64,000 nucleotides of DNA. Origin: an uncultured Bdellovibrionales bacterium. Its GTDB lineage: Bacteria; Myxococcota; XYA12-FULL-58-9; JASMKV01. Shown one piece after another: positions 21,828-40,022 of the stretch. Each line of letters starts with the position of its first letter. The first letter of the stretch is position 1. The position numbers and the translations under genes are program-made. The notes under the pieces are model-generated. The model did no database searches and had not been told where the DNA came from. It saw only the letters and a program-made list of their open reading frames with translations. The stretch is from positions 5,055 to 69,054 of the forward strand of contig CAXGWX010000001.1 of assembly GCA_964013445.1 (NCBI GenBank), read 5' to 3'.

Positions 21828-22607
21828 TCAGCTTGCTTGTTTTTTTTGCATGGAGACATGTTCTTTGTAGCGCTTAATCACTTCATCTGTCGGGCCATCC
21901 GCAACAATCTGCCCCTTATCCATAAAAATAACGCGTTCGCAGTATTCAGCAATCAACGGCAAACTATGTGAAACCATGATAACCGTAACCCCTTTGTCGA
22001 ATATTTCCTGCATCCGAACCTGGCACTTTAATTTAAATGATTCGTCACCGACAGCAAATATTTCATCCAAGAGAAGTATTTCAGGCTCTATATCCGCAGC
22101 AACAGAAAATCCTAGCCTGGTGCGCATTCCTGAAGAATAGTTTCTGATTGGAATATCAATATGCTCCTCAAGCTCAGCAAAATCCACAATTCGGTCAAAT
22201 CGCTCCTGCATATTTTGACGGGAAAGTCCCATGATTGCACCATTTAAGAAGATATTTTCACGGCCTGTTAACTCCGCATTAAAACCTGCGCCTAACTCGA
22301 TCAATGGGGTAACCATCCCGTGAACAGAAATGTTTCCTTCTCGGGCCGGAAGTACAGAGGCGATTGCTTTTAGCAGTGTGCTTTTTCCACAACCATTTGC
22401 GCCAATGAGGCCCAAATGCTCACCACGTCGAACATTTAAATCCAGGTTGCGTAAAGCCCAAAACTCTTTGAATTTAGAGCCTGAGAAAAGATTTACAACA
22501 AAATCCTTTAAAGTCACTGTCTTTTCACGATACTGGCGATAACAAATACCCAAATTACTTGCTTCTATAATATGCTCTTCGCCACTATGTTCATTCACTT
22601 TAAGCAT
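21828..22607 (-). CDS. ABC transporter ATP-binding protein for glycan export (Wzt/TagH/KpsT-like); no C-terminal carbohydrate-binding module
   Basis: Walker A GANGCGKSTLLK, LSGGM signature and Walker B LLLDE. Start taken at the ATG overlapping the wzm stop (ATGCTTAA junction). The listed ORF extends to 22628. Confidence 0.8.
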   Translation of the reverse strand: MLKVNEHSGEEHIIEASNLGICYRQYREKTVTLKDFVVNLFSGSKFKEFWALRNLDLNVRRGEHLGLIGANGCGKSTLLKAIASVLPAREGNISVHGMVTPLIELGAGFNAELTGRENIFLNGAIMGLSRQNMQERFDRIVDFAELEEHIDIPIRNYSSGMRTRLGFSVAADIEPEILLLDEIFAVGDESFKLKCQVRMQEIFDKGVTVIMVSHSLPLIAEYCERVIFMDKGQIVADGPTDEVIKRYKEHVSMQKKQAS

Positions 22608-23376
22608 AGAAAATAAAATTATCCTCATTCTTCACAAAGACAGCCGAGCCCAACACAAAAACTGCAACCGCCAAGCCAAAGCCTATAGTCCATGTACTCA
22701 GAGTTGATAATGTTCCGTAATATAAAAGATCACGGATAACCGTAACAGGATAATAAGCAGGATTAAATTTTAAAAGAAATGCCGCCTTTTCTCCAAAAAG
22801 GCTTACCGGATAAATAATTGGCGTCAAATAAAAAAGTGCTCTAAGCATTGTGGCCGTTAAATGTGTGAAGTCCCTAAAAAAGACATTTAATGTCGACATG
22901 AGCAACGCACTACCCACCGTAAAAAGATAGAGCATGGCAAAAGCCATCGGCAAAAGTATAATAGACGGCATGATGGGGTAGGAAGCGACAAGCGCAATCA
23001 ATATATAGGCTATTAATGAAAATACTAGATTAACAAAATTAGAAGTCACGATTGCTACAGGAAAAACGATTTTAGGAACATAGATTTTTTGAATTAAACT
23101 ATACTGTTTAACGATGCTGTTTTGCCCAGCATCAACAGACTGAGAAAAAAACATCCAAACAATAAGACCTGAGAGCAAAAAGAGGGCATAAAACTCCTCC
23201 TGAACGCGCGCAACACGTGAAAACACCCCCCATAACACCAACATCAGAAGAAGTGGATTAAGTAGAGTCCAAAAAAATCCAAGAAAACTACCTCGATAGC
23301 GAGTTTTCAGCGTTAAAAAAACCAAATGCGCCGTCAATTCCCGGTATCTATATAGCTCCTGCAGGGCCTTTAGCAT
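22600..23376 (-). CDS. ABC-2 type transporter permease (Wzm/TagG/KpsM-like)
   Basis: 258 aa with about 6 predicted TM helices. Directly upstream of, and overlapping, the ATPase gene. Confidence 0.7.
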   Translation of the reverse strand: MLKALQELYRYRELTAHLVFLTLKTRYRGSFLGFFWTLLNPLLLMLVLWGVFSRVARVQEEFYALFLLSGLIVWMFFSQSVDAGQNSIVKQYSLIQKIYVPKIVFPVAIVTSNFVNLVFSLIAYILIALVASYPIMPSIILLPMAFAMLYLFTVGSALLMSTLNVFFRDFTHLTATMLRALFYLTPIIYPVSLFGEKAAFLLKFNPAYYPVTVIRDLLYYGTLSTLSTWTIGFGLAVAVFVLGSAVFVKNEDNFIFYA

Positions 23377-23502
23377 AACATCCTATACTCTATGCTTTGT
23401 TGCGATAAGTAACTTTACATTAATCAATTTCAACCATAAAAGCCATTACGCAATACTTATAATAAGTGAGAAATACAAGCATTTAAGGAGATCCGGTTCA
23501 CA

Positions 23503-25695
23503 ATGCAGGCAAGATTCGGCAGCATCATAAGAACCAAGCTGAAGTGGCTCCTTCTGAAAGTTGCACAAAAAAGTGCTTTTCTGCGGCTGTACAGCGATAT
23601 CTTAAAAAATATACTGAGAAATTCAATACATTTTCCCAAAATCACTATCGTTGTTCCACTCTACAACGAAGAGCGGTTTGTTGCTGAGACCATTAAAAGT
23701 ATTCAAAACCAAAATTATAAGAATATTGAAGTTTTGGTTATCAATGATTGTTCTACAGATCAAAGTGTCAACGTTGCAAAGCAAGCATTTGCTAATGATT
23801 CCAGATTTCAGCTGATTAATCACGACACCAATCAAGGGCTTGCCGCTTCACGGAACACAGGCATTAAACATGCCACGGGCGAATATATTACCTTTCTTGA
23901 TTCAGACGACTGCCTTGTCCAGCATACATTGTGGCACAGGGTCCGCGCCATGCAGCGCAATCATTCTTCTGATATTGCAGGGAGTTATTGCATAACAACC
24001 ACCACAGCTGAAGATTTCAATTTTTCCCTGCTGAGCAAGCTCGCCTATAAGCGTCCCCCGCCAATGGCTGATATCGATTTTATGTCTTGCAAGGGAGAGT
24101 GCCCATTTAACGCCCACGCTCCTCTTCTGAAAACTGCTATCATACAGAAATTCAGTGGATTCAACGAAGAAATGCGGCACGGGTGCGAAGATTGGGAGTT
24201 CTGGCTACGTATCATGCGACACGGCTATCGTTTTATACCCAGCCACCATATAGGAGCCATATACAGACAGAAGAATTCGGGCATGATCCATACAATGGCT
24301 TCACAACATTACAAATATGCTCGCGACCTCATTGAATCAGCATATCAATCATTTCCCGAGCATCTCCACATTAAAGGCACGCCTTTCGTCTACAAAGAAC
24401 CACTTTCTTTCTATCAGGAAACACTGGTGAAGATGCGCAGAGCCACCCAATTTGCTGCCATTGGCTATATCGCAAATGGCAAAGAGGGATGTGCCGATAT
24501 CATTAAATCTATGCCCCCCTGCCCAAGGATATGGCTTCGTAAACATCTAAGCATTCCAGGTCTTGTGGAAGCGGGCATTCGTCGATACCTAAAACTGTCG
24601 CCCAAAGAATACCTCAAGGTTCGCAACAGTTATCTTGACCGACGCGATGAAATTACCCAGCTTATCTGGAGTCAGATACACCCCCAAACAGGAACACAGT
24701 CGACTCAGCATATAGACGTCCTATTTATTCCACACAATGCATATCACACCTATGAAATGTCGTTTTGTCTGCCCTATTTAAAAAAACAAGGGATTAGCTA
24801 TTTATTTATCAACGTTGATAAGGTTTATAAAAATGAAGGTGTCGAAAAGAAAGCTTTGGAGCTGGGCCTGCCCTATGCTGACTATTCTGAAAATATTTTA
24901 GACCGTTATTCCCCAAAAGCCATCTTTGTCATGAACGATTGGGGAGGAGTTGTTGCAGAGACAGTAAAACTAGCTAATGATACTGGTATTCATACTCTTG
25001 GTTTAGTCGAAGGAGTTCAGGACTATCTTGACACTCATGTAGAACATATTGGAGTTGGGCATAAAAGAAACCCCTACCAAACGGTGAAACATCCTTTGGT
25101 CGTAGGGGAGTATGATAAACAGTTTTTTCTTGCAAGCGACCCCATAGTGGTGGGTTCTCCTCGGATTGAAAATCTTTTAACAAAAGAATATTCTCCCCCA
25201 GAAAAACCTCTTGTTTGTATAAACAGTAATTTTACCTATGGCGTCTACACCAACATCCAAAAAGAGTGGATCGATGATGTCATTTCCGCATGCGATACAC
25301 TCGGCTTGCCATATGTCATATCTAAACACCCTGCAGATCGCATTGTGCTTGAACAATACAATGTCGCAGATAGACACCTTTATGAAATATTACATGAAAG
25401 TTCGGTTCTAATTAGTCGTTTCAGCGGGGCGATTTTAGAGTCAATGGCCATAGGCACACCTGTTATATATTATAACCCTCATGGCGAAAGGGTTGACTGC
25501 TTTCAAAATAGCCTAGACGCTTACCCCGTCGCTAAACATAGAAAACAGCTTATTGGGGCTCTAGAGGGCATCCTTTCTATGAACAATCGAGCAGCAAGAG
25601 ACGTAAAGAGTTTTTTTGATTTTCATGTCTATACCAATGAAAAGACTTGCGCTGGTGAACGCATCGGTCAGACAATTGCTAAAATTATATCATAA
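23503..25695 (+). CDS. Two-domain glycosyltransferase: N-terminal GT2 plus C-terminal GT-B-like (TagF/KpsC-like) domain
   Basis: AAGGAG RBS 10 nt upstream of the ATG. ITIVVPLYNEERFV...NDCSTD...LDSDD GT2 motifs in the first about 250 aa. A roughly 350-aa C-terminal domain with alternating beta/alpha character; that assignment is tentative. Confidence 0.6.
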   Translation: MQARFGSIIRTKLKWLLLKVAQKSAFLRLYSDILKNILRNSIHFPKITIVVPLYNEERFVAETIKSIQNQNYKNIEVLVINDCSTDQSVNVAKQAFANDSRFQLINHDTNQGLAASRNTGIKHATGEYITFLDSDDCLVQHTLWHRVRAMQRNHSSDIAGSYCITTTTAEDFNFSLLSKLAYKRPPPMADIDFMSCKGECPFNAHAPLLKTAIIQKFSGFNEEMRHGCEDWEFWLRIMRHGYRFIPSHHIGAIYRQKNSGMIHTMASQHYKYARDLIESAYQSFPEHLHIKGTPFVYKEPLSFYQETLVKMRRATQFAAIGYIANGKEGCADIIKSMPPCPRIWLRKHLSIPGLVEAGIRRYLKLSPKEYLKVRNSYLDRRDEITQLIWSQIHPQTGTQSTQHIDVLFIPHNAYHTYEMSFCLPYLKKQGISYLFINVDKVYKNEGVEKKALELGLPYADYSENILDRYSPKAIFVMNDWGGVVAETVKLANDTGIHTLGLVEGVQDYLDTHVEHIGVGHKRNPYQTVKHPLVVGEYDKQFFLASDPIVVGSPRIENLLTKEYSPPEKPLVCINSNFTYGVYTNIQKEWIDDVISACDTLGLPYVISKHPADRIVLEQYNVADRHLYEILHESSVLISRFSGAILESMAIGTPVIYYNPHGERVDCFQNSLDAYPVAKHRKQLIGALEGILSMNNRAARDVKSFFDFHVYTNEKTCAGERIGQTIAKIIS

Positions 25696-25882
25696 AGGCG
25701 TATTTGTAATACTTGCGTGACATACTTTTAATCTAGCCCCGTATTACTCCAACGCTTCTTACTCAATTGGTTGGAGCATGAGTAACAATGAATATAAAAC
25801 CTGCATCCACCACTCAAGAAAGCCAACAAGTCTAGCCCAAGTCTCTCGTCAACAGGATCGCACTCTTCTGAATGACTCCGGC

Positions 25883-28800
25883 TTAATTGAATATTCTCCT
25901 GATCTTCTTTATAACACCAGAATATCGGCTATTTGTGCCTTGGCCAGACTCCTCGAAAAATCTTTCACTCTTTGTGTTGAGATGCACACCCTTGCCCTCT
26001 AATGCTAGATTTTTAGCCTCAATAACACCATCTCGCCTGGAAATGGCTTCATTCTTCTCATTTATAACATCATCTCGCCTGGAAATGGCTTCATTCTTCT
26101 CATTTATAAGGGCTGTCTTTGCCCGCAAGGCTTCGTTCTTCTCATTTATAACACCATCTCGCCTGGAAATGGCTTCATTCTTCTCATTTATAAGGGCTGT
26201 CTTTGCCTGCAAGGCTTCGTTCTTAGCCTCAATAATCAAATCACGACGCTTCAAAGCACTGTTCTTTTCAAGGATAAGAAAGTTCTTTTCCGCCAATGCT
26301 TGATTTTTTTCAGCAATGGTCTGATCGCGCCTAAGTAATGCCATGCTTTTATCCTTCATCGATGCTGTATGCTTACCTTTATTAAGAAAAGACTGTTCCA
26401 GCTTAGATGAGCGTCCAAAAACACTATCTATTTGCATAATCAAATTTGAATATTTTGCCGCATCAAATTTTTCAATAAACTCCTCAACGACTCTTTCCAA
26501 CTGCCCCCCTAGCATATCCCTCCACTGGTTGATGTCGCATTGATAATATCTAGAAACCAACCATCGAGACATTTCTTCAATCTCTCGGGTAGTAATTGCA
26601 GATGTCAAATGCGGCCACATCTTATCTGCTATCTGTTGAGCCTCATCCTGCTTGCCCGCTAAAATATTCCACAAAACCCCTTGCCACAATCGCTTGTTCA
26701 TCCGGTATCTCATGTGTGCCGCACCAAACCCGTCTCGATACTCATCTAGGGCGTGCCCACTACAATCATCAACACTATAAACTTTATCTAAAACGAAATT
26801 AAGTTTGTTCAAGTGAGCATTATAGTCTGAGAACACTGTCCCCTCTGAGGTCTGTACATATTTAACCATCGCGTCAGGAACATTATTAAAAACAACCCCG
26901 CATCTCGCTAAACGCTGAAAAAAGTCCCAGTCTTCTCCATTAGCAATAGTGGGGTCAAATAATGCATATTTAGGAATAAATTCACTTTTCAAAAATAGTG
27001 CGTTGCAATGAAATGGGCACCCATCCATATTTAAGAATGTCGTTGTTTTACGATTTTTCGAAGTAATCCAGCTTAGATGATCCTTGTTTCCGTCGACAAT
27101 TTCGGTAGGACAATAAACCGCATCATGATCGAAATCGATAAGGTGCTGCATGCGTAAATGTATGGAACCATCACAAAACACATCATCCGCATCCAAAAAT
27201 CCTATATAATCACTCTCTGCCGCCAGCATTCCCGTATTTCTGGCATTTGATACCCCATTTTTGTCACTGTCTATTACCTTTATGCGCGAGTCATTCCCGG
27301 CTATATTATATAGTATTTCCCTGTTCTCCTCATTAGACCCATTATTAACAATAATAACATCCAGCCGTGGATAATTATCCTCAAAGACTGAATCTAATGC
27401 CTCCTGTATGGTGCTGCCTGCATTGCGGTAAGGTATAACTATCGAAATTGAAGGATAAAAATCGTTCTCATATTCTTCACCCAAATATGTATATCTTTTA
27501 CGCAGAGCCGGCAAATAAGACGGAGTCAACACATCAAACTTCTTACCGCGACTTTCCGCAAGTGTAATCCATTTATCTAAGACATCTCGGTGAGTAGTAT
27601 TGTACTCATTAAAATCAATATCAAAAAAGCTTGGATGAGCCGTTTTTATGTTGGCCATTTTAGAAGTAATTTGAGTCTTTTTATTATGCTTCCAATAATA
27701 ATCGTCTTCCTTCAATTTACGTCCGTCGCACCCAAGAATATGAATATGATTCGAAAATGTTGCGGCCAAAGGAATCATCATATTTGTTAGAATGTTTCCT
27801 GTCGTTTCGATATAAAACTGGTGGTTTAGGTTCAAATTGGTCCCTTTACCGCTTTCCAATGGTACACCAACACACCGCTCTTTTAACTCAGGAAAATAAT
27901 GAGTGAACAGCCTGTAGTAATTAAATGGAATCATAATCGGGAGGTCATATTTACCAACAACATCTAACAGTTTTTCCCTGTACTCTTTAGCGTATAAGTT
28001 ACACCCAAAATGGAAAATAGGATCGCCAAAGACCAACATCTCAGGGTTAACATATTTAACCAATTCATCATCAAAAATTACACTGTTACAAATAATTCTT
28101 AGACCATCATCGAAGTTGTAATTCGGGTATTTATCAATGGATGGCCCCGTCGCGAACAGATAGGATTTTTCCTTCTTACCTAGGCGATGTGCCAATTCCA
28201 TTAACCGAGCTTTGCACTCTTCAACATCGGCTTCCTTTTCGGGATAGTTATCAGGGTGCAACCCTGCCTTGATGTAAAAGGAACCTTCATAGCGCTCATT
28301 AATATTGTCAACTCGCCACCTCTGCTTCGCGCCAACTTCTTTCTCGAAAGCCTGTTTCCATATGGAGCTGGGATGCGTTGTTAAATCCCAATGCATTACG
28401 AGATCTGCCGAACGAAAAACCTTTACGGGAGCATTGGTATCGCTCGCATTAAGAACATGAATCTTGTCACGAATTTCTTCATAAACTCCAAGAATTGAAG
28501 GGTCCAGATAATCAGGAACCTCAAATTCAAAGCCTGAAAGGTCCAAGTTTTCGTCACAAAAGAAATAAATCTCTCTAAAATCAATAACACTTAAATACCA
28601 GCACGCTCTAGCAATATGGTCATTCAAATCGTCCAGAGTTGAGAAAAACGGGTAATAAAAGACAATGGGTTCAATAAACTCTTCGTGCCGAACAACATTG
28701 CTCTCTGTCAAATTCTTTATCTTTCGTTCGCGATTCTCTATCATGATATGCTGTTTATTTATGATTCGTTGTTGCGATGTAAAAATCTCTGATGCCAGTT

Positions 28801-29497
28801 GAAATTGTTCAGCTAAATCGGAAGATTTTAAGGCAATCAAATTTCCCCAGCCGTTATTGTCACCTAAATCACATGGGTATTTTGTTAGTGACCTCCATGT
28901 ATGTTGCATTCCATATTCGACAATAGGATACCACTCAGACACAAAAACCGTATAACCTTGTTCAATAAGATAATTAGCGATATCTCTAAACCTATAGCCC
29001 AACGGTATCGTTTTACGGTTTTCAAACTCACAAATAATATATTCTGGCTGTATTTGAGACCAATCATTCGATTTCAATACAAAATAGTCGAAACCTTCTG
29101 TATCAATTTTTAAAAAATCTATTTGATCGATATTTTTCTCATTACAAAAATCATCTAACCTAATCGTCTCAACGTTAAAATGTGATCGATGACTCGTATG
29201 AAATGAACTGAGCCCGCTGATACCGGAGCTAACATCGCTCTGATAAAACGGCAATACATCGCCCGTCTGTTCCCCTATAGCGCGTGTGTCAACATCAACA
29301 TTTACAAATTTTTCGATTGATTGTAAAAGTCTCTCACGATTTTTTGGATCAGGTTCAAGAGCAAATATTTTCCATCCATCTTCCGCAAAACGTTTCAGTG
29401 AACCCCCATAATGCGCACCAACATCAATCATGGTACGGAGTCCCGTATTGGCACCATTACTCTTTATGAATTGATAAATGAGTTCTACTTCGTTCAT
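25883..29497 (-). CDS. Multidomain glycan-assembly protein: N-terminal FkbM-family methyltransferase, central domains, GT2 glycosyltransferase, C-terminal coiled coil of 14-aa repeats and a basic amphipathic tail
   Basis: FkbM motif MIDVGAHYGGSLKRFAEDGWKIFALEPDPKNRE near the N-terminus. Start chosen at the ATG (complement of 29495-29497) preceded by an AGGTG RBS; the listed ORF extends to 29575. GT2 motif ISIVIPYRNAG...IVNNGSNEEN...LDADD at about residue 700. C-terminal repeats (KNEAISRRDGVINE / KNEALRAKTALINE) followed by GVIKKIRRIFN. Confidence 0.7.
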   Translation of the reverse strand: MNEVELIYQFIKSNGANTGLRTMIDVGAHYGGSLKRFAEDGWKIFALEPDPKNRERLLQSIEKFVNVDVDTRAIGEQTGDVLPFYQSDVSSGISGLSSFHTSHRSHFNVETIRLDDFCNEKNIDQIDFLKIDTEGFDYFVLKSNDWSQIQPEYIICEFENRKTIPLGYRFRDIANYLIEQGYTVFVSEWYPIVEYGMQHTWRSLTKYPCDLGDNNGWGNLIALKSSDLAEQFQLASEIFTSQQRIINKQHIMIENRERKIKNLTESNVVRHEEFIEPIVFYYPFFSTLDDLNDHIARACWYLSVIDFREIYFFCDENLDLSGFEFEVPDYLDPSILGVYEEIRDKIHVLNASDTNAPVKVFRSADLVMHWDLTTHPSSIWKQAFEKEVGAKQRWRVDNINERYEGSFYIKAGLHPDNYPEKEADVEECKARLMELAHRLGKKEKSYLFATGPSIDKYPNYNFDDGLRIICNSVIFDDELVKYVNPEMLVFGDPIFHFGCNLYAKEYREKLLDVVGKYDLPIMIPFNYYRLFTHYFPELKERCVGVPLESGKGTNLNLNHQFYIETTGNILTNMMIPLAATFSNHIHILGCDGRKLKEDDYYWKHNKKTQITSKMANIKTAHPSFFDIDFNEYNTTHRDVLDKWITLAESRGKKFDVLTPSYLPALRKRYTYLGEEYENDFYPSISIVIPYRNAGSTIQEALDSVFEDNYPRLDVIIVNNGSNEENREILYNIAGNDSRIKVIDSDKNGVSNARNTGMLAAESDYIGFLDADDVFCDGSIHLRMQHLIDFDHDAVYCPTEIVDGNKDHLSWITSKNRKTTTFLNMDGCPFHCNALFLKSEFIPKYALFDPTIANGEDWDFFQRLARCGVVFNNVPDAMVKYVQTSEGTVFSDYNAHLNKLNFVLDKVYSVDDCSGHALDEYRDGFGAAHMRYRMNKRLWQGVLWNILAGKQDEAQQIADKMWPHLTSAITTREIEEMSRWLVSRYYQCDINQWRDMLGGQLERVVEEFIEKFDAAKYSNLIMQIDSVFGRSSKLEQSFLNKGKHTASMKDKSMALLRRDQTIAEKNQALAEKNFLILEKNSALKRRDLIIEAKNEALQAKTALINEKNEAISRRDGVINEKNEALRAKTALINEKNEAISRRDDVINEKNEAISRRDGVIEAKNLALEGKGVHLNTKSERFFEESGQGTNSRYSGVIKKIRRIFN
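25990..26330 (-). repeat. In-frame 42-bp tandem repeats (about 7-8 copies, the central ones near-identical) encoding the coiled-coil region of the 25883..29497 protein
   Basis: Near-perfect copies of ttctcatttataacaccatctcgcctggaaatggcttcattc and a sister unit alternate between about 26020 and 26220. More diverged copies lie on both sides. Confidence 0.85.
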
Positions 29498-30031
29498 GCC
29501 TAAACACCTATAAAATGAGGAATTACCTCGAATAATAAAAATCGCTATATAGTTAGTATTGCCCAGATATGTCAATCAACCCATTAGTGAATTAACACCG
29601 CAAAGGGGTAAAAATTAGGCGCATAAGCCATATCAGTTCGCATTAATCACTCACTTGCGTCATCACATATTGCTGTCTTTCTGCAAACATTTGCTGCAAG
29701 CACTACGGCGCTCTGCTTAACCAAAAACAAATCGCATCCATGTCCATAAATCTTCAAGTATCTTCACAAGTTAAGATTAAGACGACAAACAATGTTAATC
29801 TAATTTACCTGCACTTGAGTGAAGGAAACTCCCTAGCATATCATAGAAGCTTAAAAATTTATAAAGTATAGAAAGTTTTCCGTAAGTAAGGTATCGTTTC
29901 GCCTGAATTACAAAAACATCCTCTGGAATTCATCGATGAATTTGCAAAACAGCTTGCACCGTTTCAGATTGATGCCATATGCACAAAACGCCCAGATTTA
30001 TGGAATAAAAGTTTTTCTAAGCAATAGCTGC

Positions 30032-30697
30032 TCAACTTATACCGTAGCTTTTTCTAATCTCTTCAAAATTAGTGTACCAGGTCATTTCTGGGTAAGTCTT
30101 AACCAAAATGCTTGCTTCATCTTCAGCCAAAGCAACAAAAGGCACCTGGTGTTCGGCCGCAGCGTTATAATCACTTAAGGCATCGCCAAAAAAGAAACAT
30201 TTGGTTGTATTATAACCATAATCATCAACCAGACGGGCGACATGCTCCCCTTTTGAGGTCGGCGCACCCAAAACTTCTTTAAAATACTTACTCCAACCAC
30301 GTCTCGCGACAATAAGCTCTATCTCTTCTTGAGGCGTTGCGGAAATCACAAATGCTGGAACACTGGCCTTTTGGGTATATTCTTTTAAAAAGTTTTCTGC
30401 ACCTGGAATCTCATCTGCTGCAATAACTTTCTCAACAACCAATTGCGCAAACCCTTCGCAAAGCTCTTCCATTTTTTCTGCCGATAACGGTTCTTTTAAA
30501 AACTCCTGATAATAGACCTTAAATTTATCTCGTCTTGTCATGCCACCATTAGCCAGATGGTGCTCAACAACTTTTTGCTCAACGTCTGAACCATGGTGCG
30601 CAAAAAGCGCGGCAAATGCTTCGGTCTTCACGTTAACCGAATCCGCCAAGACGCCATCGAAATCAAAAAATAATGCATCAATATCTTCTGGGTTCAT
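30032..30697 (-). CDS. HAD-superfamily hydrolase (phosphatase, subfamily IA-like)
   Basis: DxDG motif I (FFDFDGVLADS) right after the proposed start. The start ATG overlaps the stop of the upstream cyclase gene (ATGA junction). The listed ORF extends to 30721. Confidence 0.7.
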   Translation of the reverse strand: MNPEDIDALFFDFDGVLADSVNVKTEAFAALFAHHGSDVEQKVVEHHLANGGMTRRDKFKVYYQEFLKEPLSAEKMEELCEGFAQLVVEKVIAADEIPGAENFLKEYTQKASVPAFVISATPQEEIELIVARRGWSKYFKEVLGAPTSKGEHVARLVDDYGYNTTKCFFFGDALSDYNAAAEHQVPFVALAEDEASILVKTYPEMTWYTNFEEIRKSYGIS

Positions 30698-31350
30698 GCT
30701 GTCCATCCGATCATTGTACAAGGAGCGCCATCACCCTTATGTATGCGCAAGGGTAGAGCAATAACCTTTGTAAGTGGTTTATCTAGATTTTCCAAAGAGA
30801 GGTCTTCGTAGATGAGAATATCTCGACCCAAGTATTCCTTATGCGCTGTTCTGCCTATTTCCCTGTGTTGGTAACTGGATAAAGAAATAAAATCGAAGCC
30901 AATGGCGCGTAACCCTGGAAATCTGGATTTCAAATCCTGAGCTGAATCCGGGTGCATGCCTGGATTTGACTGCCAATATGTATCTTCACCGCGTTTCGCT
31001 TCAAATCCGGTTCGAATAAGAATAAAATCAACTTCCTGCGGAGCGTCAACAAGAACCTGAGAAAGCTTTTCAAATTCAATCAGCTCACCTTCTTCTGCCT
31101 CATAATCGATATAAAGCGGTGATTCATATATCCACTCAGTAGGAGCATAATCGGTTATCGTCTTACCATCGGCCAAAAAGTGATATGGCGCATCAACATG
31201 ACTGCCGCTATGGTTGGGGAAATCAAGATGGGTATTGTTACTCGTGTCCCCCCGAGCAATGGAGCGAACATCCTTGAGTTCAATATTCTTTGCACCGCCA
31301 TAAAGGGGTGTTGTTTTACCAATCGGATGGGATAACCAAAAACAATCCAT
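30694..31350 (-). CDS. Cyclase-family protein (kynurenine formamidase-like metal-dependent hydrolase fold)
   Basis: HxGxHxDxPxH motif (HSGSHVDAPYHF). 218 aa. Confidence 0.7.
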   Translation of the reverse strand: MDCFWLSHPIGKTTPLYGGAKNIELKDVRSIARGDTSNNTHLDFPNHSGSHVDAPYHFLADGKTITDYAPTEWIYESPLYIDYEAEEGELIEFEKLSQVLVDAPQEVDFILIRTGFEAKRGEDTYWQSNPGMHPDSAQDLKSRFPGLRAIGFDFISLSSYQHREIGRTAHKEYLGRDILIYEDLSLENLDKPLTKVIALPLRIHKGDGAPCTMIGWTA

Positions 31351-31353
31351 TGC

Positions 31354-32253
31354 TTATAAGGCTCTCTTTGCCGTCGACTCAGAATCAACAGCAATTTCTT
31401 CAACAACATCAAGAACTCCCTGCCCAATATCAACAAAGGTTCGAGGTTCAATTTTTACCGCTTGTCTGGGTGTATAGCGATAGGGGGTCAAGAGATAATG
31501 GTCACTTTCTCCGCCTGGTTCTTCGAATTCAAATTCAATATCTTTACCAACAATTTCCTTGATGAAAGCAAAAAGCTCTTTGACCTTTAAAACTTGAGCT
31601 CCTGTTAATGTAAGACATTTATTCTCAAAATCCTTCTGAAGAGCCTCTACACTTAATCGAGAAGCATCCTTAACGTGAATATACTCCCGGCGCTCTTCAC
31701 CTGTCCCATTGCAAACTATTCTATTATTCCTCACCGCTTGCAGTATGTAATTCTTGAAACCATTCCAGTCCTGTGCTCGAGGTCCATAAAGAGAACCGTA
31801 ACGCAGTATCGTATAATTCAAACCATACTTTTCATGATACGCTTCAATGAGTGTCTCAACCGATTGCTTACTCGCTCGGTAAAATGAACCTCTTTGGCTA
31901 TATACATAGACTGTCGAGGCAAAAACAAATCGCTCAACGCCCTGCTCAACACAAGCGGACAATACGATTGAGCTTCCCATAACGTTACTCTCAATAGTCA
32001 GCAGCGGATTATTAGATGCCTCCCCAATATCCGCAACACCGGCCATGTGATACACATAGTCTATCCCTTTGCATGCTGAGAGAATGGCACTTTTGTCGAG
32101 TAAATTGCCTTGAATAAATTTTTGATTGGAGCTTATCCATTTAGATTCCACATGGTCAAAAATAGTAACGTCCATGCCTGCGGCACTTAATGCATCAGCA
32201 ACATGACTTCCTAAAAAGCCTGAACCACCAATAACAAGAGCTTTCTTTTGCAT
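31354..32253 (-). CDS. NAD-dependent epimerase/dehydratase (SDR family)
   Basis: KKALVIGGSGFLGSHVADAL Rossmann motif and YRASK catalytic YxxxK. Confidence 0.75.
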   Translation of the reverse strand: MQKKALVIGGSGFLGSHVADALSAAGMDVTIFDHVESKWISSNQKFIQGNLLDKSAILSACKGIDYVYHMAGVADIGEASNNPLLTIESNVMGSSIVLSACVEQGVERFVFASTVYVYSQRGSFYRASKQSVETLIEAYHEKYGLNYTILRYGSLYGPRAQDWNGFKNYILQAVRNNRIVCNGTGEERREYIHVKDASRLSVEALQKDFENKCLTLTGAQVLKVKELFAFIKEIVGKDIEFEFEEPGGESDHYLLTPYRYTPRQAVKIEPRTFVDIGQGVLDVVEEIAVDSESTAKRAL

Positions 32254-32262
32254 ATAAATCCC

Positions 32263-33198
32263 CTATGACAATGCTGAGAGCAGATTCTCTACCGCTTCTC
32301 GCTCCATTTGAATGCGTGCTTCTCGCGCATAGGAGCCAATATGGGGAGTAAGAATAACATTATCAAAATCTCTTAATGGCCCCTCATAAGGTTCTTGCTC
32401 AAAAACATCCAGAGCAGCGCCTGCAATTTCGTTGTTAGCTAATACATCAGAAAGGTCAGCTTCATTAATAACGTCCCCCCGGGCAACATTGATAATTAGG
32501 GCGCTTGGTTTCATGAGTGCGAGCAGGTTCTTACTCACAAGGTGTCGCGTGTCTTTACCCGACGCAAGATGTAAGCTCACGATATCAGAATCTCTAAACA
32601 GTTCCTCAATCGTATCTGTTTTTCTAATGTTCAAAGCAGTCATCTCGTCCCTATCAACATAGGGATCAAATGCGCAAACCTCTGTTCCAAAACACTGCAT
32701 TTTTTCAGCGAGTTTTCGACCAATTCGTCCACAACCAACCACACCTAAAGTCTTACCCTCAACCAGACCTCCAAGATGTTTCTTCCAGCTTCCGGTTCGT
32801 GTCTGTCGATCGTGCAAGGCTATTTGCCGGGCTAAAGAAAAAATAAGTGCTATAGAAAGCTCAACGACTGCCGGTGCCACTGCATCAGGTGTTCGAAAAA
32901 CCTCCATGCCGTATTCCTTCACCGCATCATGATCAACATTATCCCAACCAACCCCGACACGAGAGATAACACGCAGGTGCTCCTGAGCCTTTTCCAATAC
33001 TCGACGAGTTATAGGCTCAACACCTGCAATCAATCCGCATGGCTGGTATTCCGTAAGAAGGGAATCCAATTCCTCTTCCGAAAGACGTCTCGAAAAAGGA
33101 TTGGTAATGACTGTATACCCTTTGGATTCAAGCTCGCTCAGCGGGCCTCTATCTGCTGTGCCAAAGGATGATGTCGTCGTTAGTATTTTATTATCCAT
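32263..33198 (-). CDS. D-isomer-specific 2-hydroxyacid dehydrogenase (PGDH-like)
   Basis: NAD-binding GVVGCGRIGRKLAEK. Catalytic R/E/H pattern (VARG...E...HIGS). Start placed at MDNKIL, which overlaps the HpcH stop. The listed ORF extends to 33228. Confidence 0.7.
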   Translation of the reverse strand: MDNKILTTTSSFGTADRGPLSELESKGYTVITNPFSRRLSEEELDSLLTEYQPCGLIAGVEPITRRVLEKAQEHLRVISRVGVGWDNVDHDAVKEYGMEVFRTPDAVAPAVVELSIALIFSLARQIALHDRQTRTGSWKKHLGGLVEGKTLGVVGCGRIGRKLAEKMQCFGTEVCAFDPYVDRDEMTALNIRKTDTIEELFRDSDIVSLHLASGKDTRHLVSKNLLALMKPSALIINVARGDVINEADLSDVLANNEIAGAALDVFEQEPYEGPLRDFDNVILTPHIGSYAREARIQMEREAVENLLSALS

Positions 33199-33199
33199 T

Positions 33200-33979
33200 T
33201 TAATGGCCTTTCTTGGCGATAGTGACACCCTCTCGGCAGATTGAGTCTAATATTCTTATATCAAGACTGTAGGCAAGAAACTTATAGCCTTCTTCCTGAC
33301 AGCGAACGATTTCTTTAGGATCTGGCTCGATAATATGAATTCCCCCTGGCTTTGGACAATTAGCGACCGCACTATTAATTTTCTCCATGGCCTCAAGCAT
33401 TTTAGGGTTATTAAAGCCTCCTGGAGCCCCTAAAGAGCCAGATAAGTCATAGGGTCCAACAATAAATCCGTCTACCCCGTCATGGTCGAGAATTGAATCT
33501 ATATTATTGACCGCATCAATATGCTCAATTTGTGGAATAAGAATACTCTCATTTTGAAGCCGCTCTTTGTAGCCTTCAAAGTCAGCGCCATAAGCCTGAG
33601 CACGTGCAAGCCCCACTCCCCTCATCCCCATTGTAGGATAATGCATCGCTCGATAGGCACGCTCTACATCCTCAACTGAATTCACCATAGGAACAATAAT
33701 TCCCTTAGCACCCGCATCCATAACCCGCTTAATCTGCACTGCATCGTTTGAAGAAAGACGTACTAGCGGCGTAACACCACTCAGATCAATAATGCGAATG
33801 AGCTCCTCAGCTTCACGTATTGTGATAACACTATGTTCCAGATCAACACATAGCCAATCAAAACCAGATTTAGCCATAATTTCTGCTATTGCTGGGTGCC
33901 CCAAGGTTATCCATGACCCCAAGGTGGCTTCTCCAGCCTTTAGCTTTTCTTTTAAACCCATTTCGATTCTGCCCTTCAT
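33200..33979 (-). CDS. HpcH/HpaI-family class II (pyruvate) aldolase
   Basis: 259 aa with the family-typical GSWITLGHPAIAEIMA N-terminus and VRLSSNDAVQIKRVMDAGAKGIIVPMV core. Confidence 0.75.
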   Translation of the reverse strand: MKGRIEMGLKEKLKAGEATLGSWITLGHPAIAEIMAKSGFDWLCVDLEHSVITIREAEELIRIIDLSGVTPLVRLSSNDAVQIKRVMDAGAKGIIVPMVNSVEDVERAYRAMHYPTMGMRGVGLARAQAYGADFEGYKERLQNESILIPQIEHIDAVNNIDSILDHDGVDGFIVGPYDLSGSLGAPGGFNNPKMLEAMEKINSAVANCPKPGGIHIIEPDPKEIVRCQEEGYKFLAYSLDIRILDSICREGVTIAKKGH

Positions 33980-34089
33980 AAACTGGGAAATAGTTCAAAT
34001 CGGAACCTAGGACTACATTGATTCAGCATAAGAATCAACAACAAGGGCTGCTTATTCCTGCTCAATAAACCAGTTTAAGAGCTTGTTAT

Positions 34090-34773
34090 TTATGCGTTAT
34101 TTTCAGCGATGGTTTGTGCTAAATCCCAATCATCTGGACCATCTATATCCAAGGATTCCAGTGTATTCATCACATAGAGATATGGTCTTTTACCAATCCG
34201 AGCATTTGTTTGTAGAAAACTATCCTTAGAAAATAAATAAAGATTGGAGTTTTCCTCGTACCACGGTTCTAAATCCTGAGTGCGTAATAGATTTTCAGGA
34301 TCGTGATTAACTGGGCTTCCATCTTTACGGTAAAAACGAGTTTGAACTTTATTTACAGTAAAGAGTGAATCCGATTCTTCATTGGCCATTTTTGCGATGA
34401 ATATTTCTATACATTCTTCAATTGTCCCAATTTCAATAAAAGGGTTGGTTGTGTGGGTCATAAGATAGGTTTTTGAATTTATGTTATTAACATCATTTTC
34501 AAGTACCGCATTCATACTCACCATATCCCCACAAATGGACTCTGGACGGTCTCTCAAAATTACCTTTGAATTATGAATTTCTTCGAACTCTTCAAGTATT
34601 CCTCTCGCATCCGTGTTAATGACAACCTTATCAATACTGTCAACATGGAGTAACTTCTCCAATACCCAAAGAAAAAGAGGTTTACCGGCAAGCTCGCGAA
34701 AATTCTTATTGGGTACACGTTCACTATTTGCCTTCATTGGTAAAAGCGCTACGACGTTATACTCTTCACTCAT
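34090..34773 (-). CDS. Acylneuraminate/ulosonic-acid cytidylyltransferase family (CMP-sugar-acid synthetase)
   Basis: VVALLPMKANSERVPNKNFRELAGKPL N-terminal CTP-binding pattern of the CMP-NeuAc/CMP-Kdo synthetase family. 227 aa. Confidence 0.75.
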   Translation of the reverse strand: MSEEYNVVALLPMKANSERVPNKNFRELAGKPLFLWVLEKLLHVDSIDKVVINTDARGILEEFEEIHNSKVILRDRPESICGDMVSMNAVLENDVNNINSKTYLMTHTTNPFIEIGTIEECIEIFIAKMANEESDSLFTVNKVQTRFYRKDGSPVNHDPENLLRTQDLEPWYEENSNLYLFSKDSFLQTNARIGKRPYLYVMNTLESLDIDGPDDWDLAQTIAENNA

Positions 34774-35763
34774 TTATTCATCCTTGTTCAACCCCAAAAT
34801 TAATCGCTTGTGGAGCTTTATATTATACATAGCGATAAAGGTCACTAAGCAAAGACCAATGGTATACCCCATCCACGCTATCTTGTTTTCTAATATGAAA
34901 ATCATTGGATTCATCAATAAAATAACAGATATGACATCCTGTTCACGAATTCTTCTTTTCCTTAAAAACAAAAAGACAAAACCAAGCAGTAAAGAAAGAA
35001 AAATATTTAATGAAGTATTGGAAAAGCTCAGATTAACCAAGAGAAGTAATAGCGCTGTTGATATACAAAGCAGGGTTGGCATTAACCCATAGAGATACCA
35101 TTTTAAATAAAACGGGAGCCATTTAAATAATTGGAATTTAGTTTCACCGTGCTGCCTTTCCTCCCACTGGCTTGGGACTTCACTAACGGAAAAACCAAGG
35201 CGAAATGCCTTTACTGTAAGTTCAAGACCGATCTCAAAACCATGAAGACTTTCAACTTTTATGTGTTCAAAGAGTTCACGTTTATAGGCACGGAAATTGT
35301 TCGTCACATCACGAGTCGAAATTCCTGTAAGAAGATTAAGTGTAAGCCCTGCGAGCATCGACAACTTTTCCTTTAAAAATGGGGCTCCAGTAATACTGCC
35401 ACCAGGTATGTATCTCGAGGCACTCACAACCCAAGCACCCTTTTGAATCTTCTCAACCATCTTGGGTATAATTTCAGGAGGGTCAGAGAGATCCGCCATC
35501 GTTGTCACAATAATATCACCACGTGCATCTTCGATGCCGGATTTAATGGCTTTTGCGGCCCCACGACCGTAGGCATTTTTAACCAAACGCATTGTTGGGT
35601 ATTTATCCTTCACTTTTTCAAGTATAGGTAAGGTCGTATCTTCATCAAAATCATAACAAACAAGTATCTCGTGCTCATCGTTTTTAAGCACGCCATACAA
35701 CCTTTGTAGGCATTCTAAAATCGATTCTGATTCATTATAGACGGGTAAGACAATCGTGAGCAT
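34774..35763 (-). CDS. GT2 polyprenyl-phosphate glycosyltransferase (GtrB/DPM1-like) with C-terminal transmembrane helices
   Basis: LTIVLPVYNESESI...DEDTT...ADLSD GT-A motifs followed by two strongly hydrophobic C-terminal segments. Confidence 0.7.
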   Translation of the reverse strand: MLTIVLPVYNESESILECLQRLYGVLKNDEHEILVCYDFDEDTTLPILEKVKDKYPTMRLVKNAYGRGAAKAIKSGIEDARGDIIVTTMADLSDPPEIIPKMVEKIQKGAWVVSASRYIPGGSITGAPFLKEKLSMLAGLTLNLLTGISTRDVTNNFRAYKRELFEHIKVESLHGFEIGLELTVKAFRLGFSVSEVPSQWEERQHGETKFQLFKWLPFYLKWYLYGLMPTLLCISTALLLLLVNLSFSNTSLNIFLSLLLGFVFLFLRKRRIREQDVISVILLMNPMIFILENKIAWMGYTIGLCLVTFIAMYNIKLHKRLILGLNKDE

Positions 35764-35769
35764 GTCGTT

Positions 35770-36669
35770 TTAAAGTGTTGTTCGCTTTTGAAATCGTTTT
35801 TTAACCATTTTCCTGATATTTAAACGTTCTGCAGCTAATTTTAAGATGTGGGGTTGCTGTGACACAACGCGCAGAACTCGTGCTGCCTCCCAGGGAACAG
35901 CTGTCCAGCAATACTTAAGAAAGCTCATGGCTGATTCATTTTTTAACCATAAATAATAACGATTAATAAACGACTGTGCATAAATTCCTGGCGGCTTGCT
36001 TTCTGGACCTCTGCGCTTATGAAAAGCCTTAACTTCTGGTGTATACAGATGTTTCCATCCTTTGTTGGTCAATCGCCAAGCAAGATCCACATCTTCATAA
36101 TAGGCAAAAAAATCTTCATCAAAAAATTCTGGTCCGACATCTTCAAGAGCCTTTCTTCGGTAAAGAGCTGCCGTTGCCGAGGGTCCAAAAATAAAACCCT
36201 CTGTATTGTATTGACCTAAATCTTCTTCCTCAAAGCCCTTATCCAGTGGTCTCAGTGCATAAGCACAAAGATCAATACCCACAGAATCTATGAATTGCCT
36301 GCCGTTCTTTTCGTAAACAAGTTTTCCCGTAGCTGAAGCTAACTCTGAACATGTTTCCATTTTCTTTAGGATGACCGAAAGATAATCATTAGAAATTTTA
36401 GCATCATCATTTAAACAAAGAATATACGGTGATTCAGATTGCTTAAAACCCATGTTCATAGCTACAGAGAAACCATAGTTTTTATTCAACTTAATTAACT
36501 CCACAGAGCTGAAATCACGTTCAATAATATTACAGGTTTGATCCTGAGAGTGGTTATCTATAACTATAATTTTTTCAGGATTATTTGCCGAAGCAGCACT
36601 TAAACAACGCTCAATCCAGGACTCACTGTTCCAGGTTACGACGATAACTGTGACGGGGAGAGCACTCAC
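35770..36669 (-). CDS. Glycosyltransferase family 2
   Basis: VTVIVVTWNSESWIERCL...VIDNHSQD...LNDDA GT-A motifs. Confidence 0.7.
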   Translation of the reverse strand: MSALPVTVIVVTWNSESWIERCLSAASANNPEKIIVIDNHSQDQTCNIIERDFSSVELIKLNKNYGFSVAMNMGFKQSESPYILCLNDDAKISNDYLSVILKKMETCSELASATGKLVYEKNGRQFIDSVGIDLCAYALRPLDKGFEEEDLGQYNTEGFIFGPSATAALYRRKALEDVGPEFFDEDFFAYYEDVDLAWRLTNKGWKHLYTPEVKAFHKRRGPESKPPGIYAQSFINRYYLWLKNESAMSFLKYCWTAVPWEAARVLRVVSQQPHILKLAAERLNIRKMVKKRFQKRTTL

Positions 36670-37691
36670 TTTGCACCTGTACGTTGAGCATACATTCTTT
36701 GATAGTAATCTTTGTACGCCCCATTCTTAATATTTGCCCACCACTCCTTGTTATCCCTGTACCAATCGACCACTTCAACAAGTCGTTCTTCAATAGAAGG
36801 TCCTGCTCTAAATCCAAGCTTATCTTTCGCTTTAAAGGGTTCAATAGCGTAACGTCTGTCGTGAGCTAAGCGGTCTTCCACCGGCTGTATAAGCTCTTTT
36901 CCTACACCTGTGACCTCACAAATGGCCAACGCTATATCCTTATTGGCCCGTTCGCATTCACCGCCCAAGTTATAAACTTCTCCGTTCACGCCTTTTTCAA
37001 AAGCAAGTTTTAAACCAAAGGAATGCTCATCAACATAAATCCAGTCTCTAACATTTTTGCCATCACCATAGAGTGGGAGCGGTTTATTCTCTAATGCATT
37101 AGTAATGAAGAGAGGAATAAACTTTTCAGGAAACTGATAAGGCCCGTAATTATTAGAGCAGCGGGTAACAATAGTATTCAGACCATAAGTTTTATGAGCT
37201 GCCAAAACCAATAAGTCAGAAGATGTTTTAGAGGCCGCATAAGGCGAGGTTGGCTCAAGAGCAGATTCCTCACTAAAACGCTTCTGGTCTTCAAGTTCCA
37301 GCGAGCCATAAACCTCATCAGTTGAAACGTGCATAAAGCGCCCAACCTTATGCTTTCGAGCTGCATCAATAAGATTCTGTGTTCCTACCACATTCGTTTC
37401 AACAAAAGGGAGTGCGCTTTCAATAGAGCGATCTACATGGGATTCAGCAGCAAAATGAAAGATGGCATCTGCACCATCTCTTAAGGCTTTATCGACATCA
37501 TCAGCGCGAATGATATTACCATGGATAAAAGTAAAACCTGGGTGTTCAAAGACGGGCTTTAGGTTCTCCATGTTTCCAGCGTAGGTGAGCGCATCGAGAA
37601 CAATAATTTCATCACACCACTCTTCAAGCAGAGCCCGCCTGACAAAATTAGAACCTATAAACCCCGCTCCACCTGTAACAACCCAACGCAT
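36666..37691 (-). CDS. rfbB: dTDP-glucose 4,6-dehydratase RmlB
   Basis: MRWVVTGGAGFIGSNFVRR N-terminus, catalytic YAASK, and 341 aa length. Confidence 0.85.
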   Translation of the reverse strand: MRWVVTGGAGFIGSNFVRRALLEEWCDEIIVLDALTYAGNMENLKPVFEHPGFTFIHGNIIRADDVDKALRDGADAIFHFAAESHVDRSIESALPFVETNVVGTQNLIDAARKHKVGRFMHVSTDEVYGSLELEDQKRFSEESALEPTSPYAASKTSSDLLVLAAHKTYGLNTIVTRCSNNYGPYQFPEKFIPLFITNALENKPLPLYGDGKNVRDWIYVDEHSFGLKLAFEKGVNGEVYNLGGECERANKDIALAICEVTGVGKELIQPVEDRLAHDRRYAIEPFKAKDKLGFRAGPSIEERLVEVVDWYRDNKEWWANIKNGAYKDYYQRMYAQRTGAK

Positions 37692-37723
37692 GATACAATT
37701 ATTCTATCTCAAAAATATAAATA

Positions 37724-38830
37724 TTATTCGTTTGAAGTAAGTGAGGCGGTTTCATCTTCCAGATTGCCCGCACCCCACATTTTATCACGGCTTGTGCGTG
37801 CTTCTTCTTTATTGGCGCGTTTCTCAGCTTGCAGCTCAACAAGGTGATGGTGTGTCGTAAAATAAGGAAGACTCTTACCGACAATATCCTGAACCGAATC
37901 AAATCCATGATCGTCCATAAACTTAGATAAGCCTTCCATAAGTGGAGTTACCATTTTCATGCCATAAATCATCGCACCGGTACAAACCTGAACCGTATTT
38001 GCACCAACCAGAAGAAACTCAATAGCATCTTCGGCTGTCACAACCCCGCCAATCCCAGAAATATCAAATTTTGGTATTTCTACGGCAATTTCCTTAACCG
38101 CACGCAGCCCAATAGGCTTTACCGCCGGTGCGGAATAACCACCTGGGGTGGAGTGTCCCTCAACCGTTGGAAGCGGCCTAAGGGTCTTAAGATCGATTCC
38201 AATCACCGCCAACACCGTATTGATGGCACTGACTCCATGGGCACCGCCAGCCTGAGCCCCTTTTGCAGGCTTTACGATATCCGTAATGTTGGGTGTCATC
38301 TTTGACCAAACCGGCACATCGACGGCTTCAACAACCCAGCGCGTGACTTCTTCAACCTGGGCAGGATCTTGCCCCATAGCGGCCCCCATGCCCGTTTCAG
38401 GGTGTCCATGTGGGCAGGAGAAGTTAAGTTCCAAAGCATCACATCCGGCGGCCACACAGCGTTGTGCAACCTCTTGCCAGCGTTCTTTTTCATAAGACTC
38501 CATGATCGAGCCAATCAGAATCTTGTCCGGATACTCATTTTTTACGATTTTAAATTCTTCTTCCCATTGCTCAAAAGGAAGATCGGAAATCAGCTCTATA
38601 TTTTGAAATCCATAGACTTCACCGCCTTTAGCACGGAGTTTTCCGTAACGAGGCATAACATTAACAACTTCCGTGTCCGTTAAGCTTGTTGTCTTAGCAA
38701 CAACACCACCCCAGCCGGCCTTAAAGGCCTTACAAATAACGCGAGCATTTGTTCCAGGAGGTCCACTGCCAATAACAAATGGATTATCAAATTTAAGGCC
38801 TGAAACTTCGATGCTTAGATCTCTTGCCAT
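37724..38830 (-). CDS. Dihydroorotate/dihydropyrimidine dehydrogenase-family flavoprotein (PreA-like), no Fe-S partner domain
   Basis: FDNPFVIGSGPP and NFSCPHG catalytic-cysteine motif typical of the DHOD/DPD TIM-barrel family. The C-terminal about 45 aa are low complexity. Confidence 0.65.
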   Translation of the reverse strand: MARDLSIEVSGLKFDNPFVIGSGPPGTNARVICKAFKAGWGGVVAKTTSLTDTEVVNVMPRYGKLRAKGGEVYGFQNIELISDLPFEQWEEEFKIVKNEYPDKILIGSIMESYEKERWQEVAQRCVAAGCDALELNFSCPHGHPETGMGAAMGQDPAQVEEVTRWVVEAVDVPVWSKMTPNITDIVKPAKGAQAGGAHGVSAINTVLAVIGIDLKTLRPLPTVEGHSTPGGYSAPAVKPIGLRAVKEIAVEIPKFDISGIGGVVTAEDAIEFLLVGANTVQVCTGAMIYGMKMVTPLMEGLSKFMDDHGFDSVQDIVGKSLPYFTTHHHLVELQAEKRANKEEARTSRDKMWGAGNLEDETASLTSNE

Positions 38831-38898
38831 CCTCTTCTCCCTAAATGGTATTCAATCAAAGGTCTACTTTATGGGTATTGTCTATAAATCTCAAGAGA

Positions 38899-40005: not shown

Positions 40006-40022
40006 AAGGCTTAAAAAGCCAA

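Follow-up and report, generated by a model that had tools for sequence, protein, structure and literature searches.

A 42/84-nucleotide in-frame repeat array in the helical stalk of a putative WbdD-like glycan-length ruler from an uncultured Bdellovibrionales bacterium

Coiled-coil rulers are an accepted means of controlling O-antigen length in systems that depend on ATP-binding cassette (ABC) transporters. O-antigen length bears on resistance to serum, access of phages, and vaccine epitopes, and to our knowledge the length of such a ruler has so far been altered by engineering only. WbdD, the methyltransferase (with or without a kinase) that terminates chains in Escherichia coli O8/O9a and Klebsiella pneumoniae O3/O5, carries a coiled-coil ruler of this kind. 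An extended coiled coil has been called "a characteristic marker" of the chain-terminating protein in an ABC-transporter-dependent pathway (PMC11231755), and coiled-coil length sets glycan chain length in both WbdD and WbbB (PMC11231755, PMC3482155). The Wzt ATPase has a carbohydrate-binding module (CBM) in all characterised terminated systems, whereas in the non-terminated K. pneumoniae O2a-type system Wzt lacks a CBM and transporter stoichiometry determines how long the chain is (PMC11231755). Here we analyzed a stretch of 64,000 nucleotides (nt) from an uncultured Bdellovibrionales bacterium (contig CAXGWX010000001.1, positions 5,055 to 69,054; hereafter, the window), in which the gene for a 1204-residue multidomain protein (25883..29497, minus strand) contains tandem repeats that code for a long helical stalk. 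We lean towards reading these repeats as the evolutionarily labile spacer of a WbdD-like ruler, resembling a variable number of tandem repeats (VNTR) locus, and not as a rapid within-clone switch.

Tandem Repeats Finder reported two periods for the interval 26022-26224, one of 42 nt (4.1-4.6 copies, 77-80% match) and one of 84 nt (2.1 copies, 96% match, score 339), and a separate repeat search placed two 84-nt copies, 96% identical, at 26045-26128 and 26129-26212. Read in the coding register of the minus strand, the array comprises nine 42-nt units, #3-#11 (25973..26350), which mostly alternate between two types, A and B; each codes for 14 residues, and together they make up 18 heptads. A near-identical, in-frame core of five units (26015..26224) has the order B-A-B-A-A: unit #6 (type B, 26183-26224, KNEALQAKTALINE), unit #7 (type A, 26141-26182, KNEAISRRDGVINE), unit #8 (type B, 26099-26140, KNEALRAKTALINE), unit #9 (type A, 26057-26098, KNEAISRRDDVINE), and unit #10 (type A, 26015-26056, KNEAISRRDGVIEA). 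The peptides of type A follow the pattern K-N-x-A-[IL]-x-R-R-D-x-x-I-x-x, and those of type B follow K-N-x-A-L-x-x-K-x-x-x-[IL]-x-x. Units of the same type are nearly identical (41 of 42 nt for #6 against #8 and for #7 against #9, and 37 of 42 for #7 against #10), whereas A and B units share only 24 of 42 nt, so that the near-perfect and truly recent period is the 84-nt A+B pair, present in 2.1-2.5 copies, and not 42 nt. In the coding register, the two copies of this pair lie at 26141-26224 and 26057-26140, with the extra A unit after them at 26015-26056. The flanking units, #3-5 at 26225-26350 and #11 at 25973-26014, retain the 14-residue pattern but are old, as judged from an identity of 14-26 of 42 nt. 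For each unit type there were two matches at one mismatch or fewer, compared with none in 100 shuffles, and a further A copy matched with five mismatches.

An earlier note on this DNA had placed near-perfect 42-bp repeats with degenerate copies on their flanks at 25990-26330. The location, the alternation of units, the peptide sequences that it gave, and the degenerate flanks all hold, and every unit is in frame; only the period to which "near-perfect" applies has to be doubled. Two other interpretations of the same letters were rejected. The array is not a non-coding regulatory element, since it lies wholly within an intact frame of 1204 codons, and an antisense open reading frame (ORF; 25887-26303, plus strand, 138 aa, with …SFFSFITPSRLEMA… repeated) is a mechanical by-product of the repeat composition rather than a likely gene.

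The junctions between units carry a record of how the array grew. Unit #10 equals unit #7 over its first 35 nt and ends in ATTGAGGCT (IEA), as does the old unit #5, and units #7 and #9 end in ATAAATGAG (INE), as do the B units. Unit #7 appears to be a chimeric A unit with a B-type tail, joined at a shared TTAT, which indicates a 42-nt duplication. The simplest history compatible with the junction sequence would comprise three steps, in which unequal exchange at the shared TTAT within an ancestral B-A* pair produced the chimeric A unit (the 42-nt duplication), the resulting B-A pair was duplicated as an 84-nt block, and two point substitutions followed. These substitutions, CAG/CGG (Q/R) and GGT/GAT (G/D), are the only differences between the twin copies; both are non-synonymous, so that the silent differences to which the earlier note looked as a sign of suppressed recombination are absent. 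At least two recent in-frame expansions, with steps in multiples of 14 residues (two heptads), are demonstrably recorded in the junctions as we read them, and the stalk would on this reading have grown by unequal exchange among its own 42/84-nt units. The expansions probably added 42 residues (~6 nm) to a helix that formerly had ~80 residues, with the heptad phase kept. At offsets of 84, 126, and 42 nt, the longest perfect tracts in the array still measure 53, 46, and 39 nt, respectively, and because such tracts persist, the stalk could still gain or lose 14, 28, or 42 residues at a time, by slipped misalignment or by RecA-dependent exchange. Gain or loss of a 14-codon unit in a run of 18 heptads would be in frame, as the earlier note had argued, and heptad-neutral.

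At the protein level, the C-terminal AlphaFold2 monomer model (predicted local distance difference test, pLDDT, 76) has a GT-A fold, then a helical bundle, then a helix of 122 residues, and last a short terminal helix that a disordered linker separates from the long one. The 122-residue helix (mature residues 1045-1166; 26000..26365, minus strand; model helix 389-510) is single and continuous, has a pLDDT of 75-89, and would measure ~18 nm if straight; core units #6-#10 code for its central 70 residues. We regard it as a stalk and a putative coiled coil. Across 18 heptads it has a strict 7-residue periodicity and not a single proline, with one heptad position invariably I/L, the adjacent one A alternating with L/I/V, another invariably K/R, and the next N/D/T. 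The last 15 residues of the protein (SRYSGVIKKIRRIFN; 25886..25930, minus strand) form a basic amphipathic helix with a hydrophobic moment of up to 0.85 and a net charge of +4/+5, seen in the C-terminal model as helix 537-547 after the disordered linker; it is a putative peripheral membrane anchor. A search with the C-terminal 197 residues found no homologues at E<=0.001 among 5.8 billion proteins, and a Foldseek search with the C-terminal model returned GT2 enzymes only and was uninformative as to the stalk.

Copy number at this locus was compared in the sequences that could be retrieved. A Tara Oceans scaffold (ERZ2782945 scaffold_10711), separately deposited and recorded in two samples, matches the window without a difference over 3765 bp, the entire array included; the assemblies compared are consensus sequences, in which minor copy-number variants would be invisible. 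The 1204-residue protein is also identical to NCBI MBJ79713.1, a "hypothetical protein" from a Tara Oceans metagenome-assembled genome (MAG) labelled "Myxococcales bacterium" (GCA_002720515.1). Its 90% cluster consists of Tara fragments only, none of which has a different unit count; one of the Tara fragments, P0123, ends within the array, at ...KNEALQAKTALINEKNEAISR. The full-length protein search gave no match above 35% identity, the GTDB species genomes gave just two matches, both at domain level, and the array was absent from the Joint Genome Institute (JGI) metagenomes as judged by peptide patterns and by the 25-nt repeat core. Variation in copy number, which the earlier note anticipated, was thus not seen here, the two assemblies being identical over the array and relatives or variant fragments being absent from the collections searched.

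Short-read metagenome assembly can itself create a repeat arrangement or a copy number, and two facts fit such an artefact: the sequence derives from a Tara Oceans MAG assembled from short reads, and P0123 breaks off inside the array, where assemblers struggle. This explanation is nonetheless highly improbable, as the array is spanned by a separately deposited scaffold with the same sequence, the order of the units is anchored by substitutions that distinguish them, and both the reading frame and the heptad phase are intact.

A different possibility, and the one put forward in the earlier note, is a true contingency locus, at which high-frequency clonal expansion and contraction would maintain a reversible, quantised mix of stalk lengths and glycan modal lengths. 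The near-identical in-frame units and their 39-53-nt perfect tracts, the twin copies without silent differences, the junctions with their record of at least two recent expansions, and the pairs of near-identical superfamily members that differ in copy number by whole units (see below) would all be expected of it. Classical contingency tracts, however, have many copies of 1-7-nt units, and here there are just 2-3 copies of a long unit; the twin copies already carry two substitutions, so that homogenisation is not very rapid; the MAG contig and the separate Tara scaffold (2 samples) have the same copy number; and variant fragments were not found in 5.8 billion proteins or in the JGI metagenomes. 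In E. coli, direct repeats of such tract size rearrange at rates well above those of point mutation and orders of magnitude below those of simple-sequence contingency tracts, and this array is expected to rearrange at the low rate of long direct repeats. We judge a contingency locus distinctly unlikely and the term "phase-variation-like" overstated for 2-3 copies of a 42/84-nt unit, which do not constitute a hypermutable tract. What survives of the contingency proposal are the recent in-frame expansions and the whole-unit insertions and deletions (indels) in superfamily pairs; the copies are few and long, and no heterogeneity was observed.

The protein that carries the stalk starts at an ATG at 29497 and ends with a stop codon at 25883-25885; the mechanically called ORF extends to a TTG at 29575 (25883-29575, minus strand). 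From the N- to the C-terminus it comprises an FkbM methyltransferase, a Maf/GT42-like domain, a GT2 domain, the helical bundle, the stalk, and the basic amphipathic tail, all encoded on the minus strand. The FkbM methyltransferase (mature 25-183, ORF 51-209; 28949..29425; Pfam PF05050, E=8e-23) is, from its sequence, a candidate for a chain-capping activity. It is followed by an inter-domain helix of 43 residues (mature 226-268; 28694..28822; helix 2-44 of AlphaFold2 model m676c3043e0cb) and by a conserved domain of ~390 residues (mature 279-668; 27494..28663), which is also present in homologues P0001-P0063. The latter domain has no Pfam match at E<=10, PF01973 (Maf) being undetected, and its confidently predicted fold resembles those of Maf and of GT42 and GT29 sialyltransferases, which suggests a glycosyltransferase dependent on a cytidine monophosphate (CMP)-sugar. 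With its own invariant motifs (ATGPS...CNSV; DPIFHFGPS.YA..FR; LGCDGRP..YFW.HN..QIN.KM.NI..VHP.FF.IDYNDYY..HC), it may represent an undescribed family of CMP-sugar glycosyltransferases. The GT2 domain, of GT-A fold (mature 685-885, ORF 711-911; 26843..27445; Pfam PF00535, E=1.5e-28), is backed by sequence matches to chondroitin and heparosan synthases in the Protein Data Bank (PDB) and by Foldseek matches to GT2 enzymes. An alpha-helical bundle (mature 926-1039; 26381..26722; helices 270-383 of AlphaFold2 model m514c6ee3ca7e) lies between GT2 and the stalk. No hydrophobic transmembrane segment was found in the 1204-residue protein, which is a cytoplasmic glycan-assembly enzyme.

The relatives of this protein have a permuted domain order. 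Nearly all of the ~120 homologues begin with the Maf-like domain and have FkbM 800-1500 residues downstream, whereas FkbM is N-terminal in the window protein. Many of them continue with hydrophobic segments and a helical region and, in several, with a C-terminal O-methyltransferase resembling TylF/CmcI. A crude scan detected near-identical tandem peptide repeats in the helical regions of 7 of 120 distant homologues, with periods of 14, 14/28, 19, 34, and 39 residues and more. From one lineage to another the unit sequences show no relationship, and the repeats therefore arose independently. In the repeat-bearing relatives, the repeat helix comes directly after the hydrophobic segments, and in P0001, P0111, and P0102 the distal O-methyltransferase domain comes after the repeat helix; this succession of anchor, helix, and distal modifying enzyme is a ruler-type layout.

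Two pairs of relatives drawn from within 90%-identity clusters were compared at the DNA level. L006 and L007 (from JGI samples 3300033156 and 3300033150, respectively) are 99.7% identical over 4.7 kb, and their sole indels concern a 96-nt unit, present in 1.9 versus 2.9 copies, and a 57-nt unit, present in 2.1 copies versus 1 copy, both in the helical spacer (gene positions 3534-3849 in L006 and 3534-3811 in L007). In the second pair, L008 has 2.5 copies of a 42-nt unit (3748-3853; 92%), and L009 has 3.6 copies of an 84-nt unit (3730-4032) that are 100% identical to one another; indels are confined to the array, which is also where this gene, elsewhere 80-100% identical, has diverged most. The 14/28-residue period of L008 and L009 recurs independently of the array in the window. 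Because the proteins of this superfamily are cytoplasmic, antigenic selection cannot explain the variability of the spacers, which would leave spacer geometry or neutral instability as explanations.

The gene neighbourhood is an ABC-transporter-dependent glycan cluster. A Wzm-like ABC-2 permease (22600..23376, minus strand; Pfam PF01061) and a Wzt-like ABC ATPase (21828..22607, minus strand), whose 259 residues contain the ABC domain only, lie within about 2.5-4 kb of the 1204-residue protein gene, and four more GT2 genes are close by, as are many genes for nucleotide-sugar enzymes. The ATPase at the homologous L006 locus has 414 residues, compared with 259 in the window. The convergent neighbour (23503..25695, plus strand) encodes a protein of 730 residues, with a GT2 domain in the first ~280 and no Pfam match in the ~450 that follow, and is a candidate for the membrane-proximal polymerase component. 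Enzymes encoded in the cluster include a cytidylyltransferase, an HpcH aldolase, a 2-hydroxyacid dehydrogenase, and a HAD phosphatase. The genes for the cytidylyltransferase (CTP_transf_3), the 2-hydroxyacid dehydrogenase, and the HpcH/HpaI aldolase occur together both in the window (32263-34773) and at L006 (12711-15229), so that the same set adjoins the 1204-residue protein gene and that of its 35%-identical homologue P0001, which suggests a pathway common to the two loci that would yield an unusual acidic sugar in CMP-activated form. The G+C content is 0.38-0.45 in the glycan cluster (22000-42000) and 0.45-0.52 in the flanking housekeeping DNA, lower values being usual at surface-polysaccharide loci.

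A scan for promoters and terminators found no promoter-like site in the convergent intergenic region and a terminator-like site at 25663-25648 (minus strand), inside the plus-strand neighbour at its 3' end; no RNA families were detected by Rfam across the whole window. Tandem repeats occur at two loci in the 64 kb, the stalk array being one. The other is also in frame, at 46225-46349, where 13.6 copies of CGTGGTGGT with 83% match lie in the ORF 45946-46953 (plus strand) and code for an (RGG)n / RGGRGGRDG tract mid-way in a 335-residue protein.

From this architecture and context, the following mechanism can be proposed. The basic amphipathic tail would rest against the inner side of the cytoplasmic membrane, and the heptad-repeat helix would oligomerise into a rod of ~18 nm that holds the catalytic head (GT2, the Maf/GT42-like CMP-sugar transferase, and FkbM) off the membrane. 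Other glycosyltransferases of the cluster would extend a lipid-linked chain at the membrane, and, following the ruler logic of WbdD, this chain would be capped only when it is long enough to reach the head and would then be exported by Wzm/Wzt. By analogy, coiled-coil ruler function is plausible, and unit gain or loss would alter the spacer in such a ruler.

Several observations weigh against a labile ruler. N/D/T fill one core position of the heptad, and the periodicity at 3.5 residues is weak, with about 10% of shuffles reaching it. This weakness of the canonical signal stems from the polar partner core position, and for this reason we speak of a heptad-repeat stalk and only infer its oligomerisation as a coiled coil; the claim that the repeats encode a coiled coil accordingly stands for the long helix and its strict heptads (122 residues, 18 heptads), with oligomerisation as the putative part. 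The Wzt-like ATPase lacks the C-terminal CBM. GT2 and all other catalytic modules lie on one side of the helix, so that a separation of terminator and polymerase is not evident within the polypeptide. At this locus the two assemblies compared above agree exactly over the array, with no variation seen. The polymorphism in the relatives comes from separately assembled metagenome contigs, in which repeat counts are possibly misassembled, and the helical repeats of the relatives are analogous, not homologous, to the stalk of the window protein. The earlier note's claim of a ruler is in keeping with the terminator-like architecture and the gene context, and is weakened by the missing CBM and by the position of the catalytic modules; the ruler function itself is putative.

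The same observations could be accommodated if the helix merely served as an oligomerisation device or membrane tether that measures nothing, with the repeats as neutral relics of duplication in a protein that tolerates any heptad-compatible helix. The presence of terminator-type and polymerase-type modules on one side of the helix agrees with this account, as does a Wzt without a CBM, which recalls the non-terminated K. pneumoniae O2a-type system (PMC11231755), and the C-terminal region is common to no homologue. On the other hand, the succession of an N-terminal head, a long helix, and a C-terminal amphipathic helix is the layout of WbdD (PMC11231755), and in several relatives a spacer built of repeats again separates a membrane anchor from a distal methyltransferase, which is hard to understand if length is irrelevant; the variability is, moreover, that of a cytoplasmic protein, for which antigenic selection offers no explanation. 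A pure tether therefore seems to us a possible but rather unlikely account, and a VNTR-like, evolutionarily labile ruler spacer, which would vary from strain to strain, remains the reading towards which we lean.

A broader idea, which we put forward tentatively and hold to be doubtful in its general form, is that tandem-repeat helical spacers act as an evolvable dial for surface-glycan length, with standing copy-number polymorphism in ABC-transporter-dependent pathways. Were it true, the modal length of O-antigen or capsule chains would differ in quantised steps between strains or subpopulations, and the locus in the window, together with the pairs L006/L007 and L008/L009, would provide the first natural examples. 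If natural rulers were built of recombinogenic, in-frame repeats and varied by whole units among nearly identical strains, chain length would be readily evolvable, quantised, predictable from sequence, and open to typing as a VNTR. With a clean candidate locus in the window and two pairs of natural alleles from related proteins, the present data make the idea testable but do not demonstrate it. Natural repeat variation in WbdD, WbbB, or other glycan-terminator coiled coils was not found in the literature searched, and repeat polymorphism in such coils would be a modestly novel, testable lead.

Among described systems, the resemblance of the window protein to WbdD-type terminators is one of architecture and not of homology. 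Membership of the WbdD/WbbB family by descent was rejected, as a phmmer search against all PDB sequences gave matches to the GT2 domain only. The features shared with WbdD are an N-terminal head that contains a methyltransferase, a long C-terminal helix (~18 nm here), and a C-terminal amphipathic helix (PMC11231755, PMC3482155), as well as a gene beside wzm/wzt in an ABC-transporter-dependent glycan cluster. The methyltransferase is far N-terminal and the putative anchor C-terminal, alike in the two proteins, but GT2 is also distal in the window protein. Further differences are that the methyltransferase is of FkbM type, that the head has two extra glycosyltransferase modules, that Wzt lacks a CBM, and that the helix is built of near-identical DNA repeats, for which the literature searched gave no counterpart in WbdD. 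With WbbB (K. pneumoniae O12 / Raoultella terrigena) and ORF6 of K. pneumoniae O7, the window protein shares a large multimodule polypeptide (PMC11231755) that combines a capping-type enzyme (a CMP-sugar transferase-like enzyme and/or a methyltransferase), one or more GT2 modules, and a long helix. In those proteins the coil lies between the terminator and the polymerase glycosyltransferases, whereas here all modules are N-terminal to the helix and the far end consists of the amphipathic tail only. The ~390-residue domain is likened to Maf and to GT42 (Cst-I/II) by its predicted fold, and differs in its own invariant motifs and in having no PF01973 match.

Classical contingency loci have in common with the array a repeat-mediated, potentially reversible change of length in a gene that affects a surface structure, but they consist of many copies of 1-7-nt units and switch on and off, whereas the 42/84-nt units here are present in 2-3 copies, remain in frame, and would act in a graded manner. 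A closer parallel comes from YscP, the ruler of the Yersinia type III secretion needle. Its in-frame repeats of 14, 25, and 46 residues are described as varying in number from one Yersinia strain to another (PMC3469391), and the length of the needle is described as scaling linearly with that of the YscP protein (PMC3469391, citing Wagner et al. 2009). YscP is an unrelated protein in an unrelated process, secreted and partly extended where the stalk is cytoplasmic, and its repeats have been seen to vary where those of the window locus have not. Both nevertheless have near-identical, in-frame repeats within a segment that determines length (putatively so in the window protein), and YscP is the nearest precedent for a ruler tuned by repeats.

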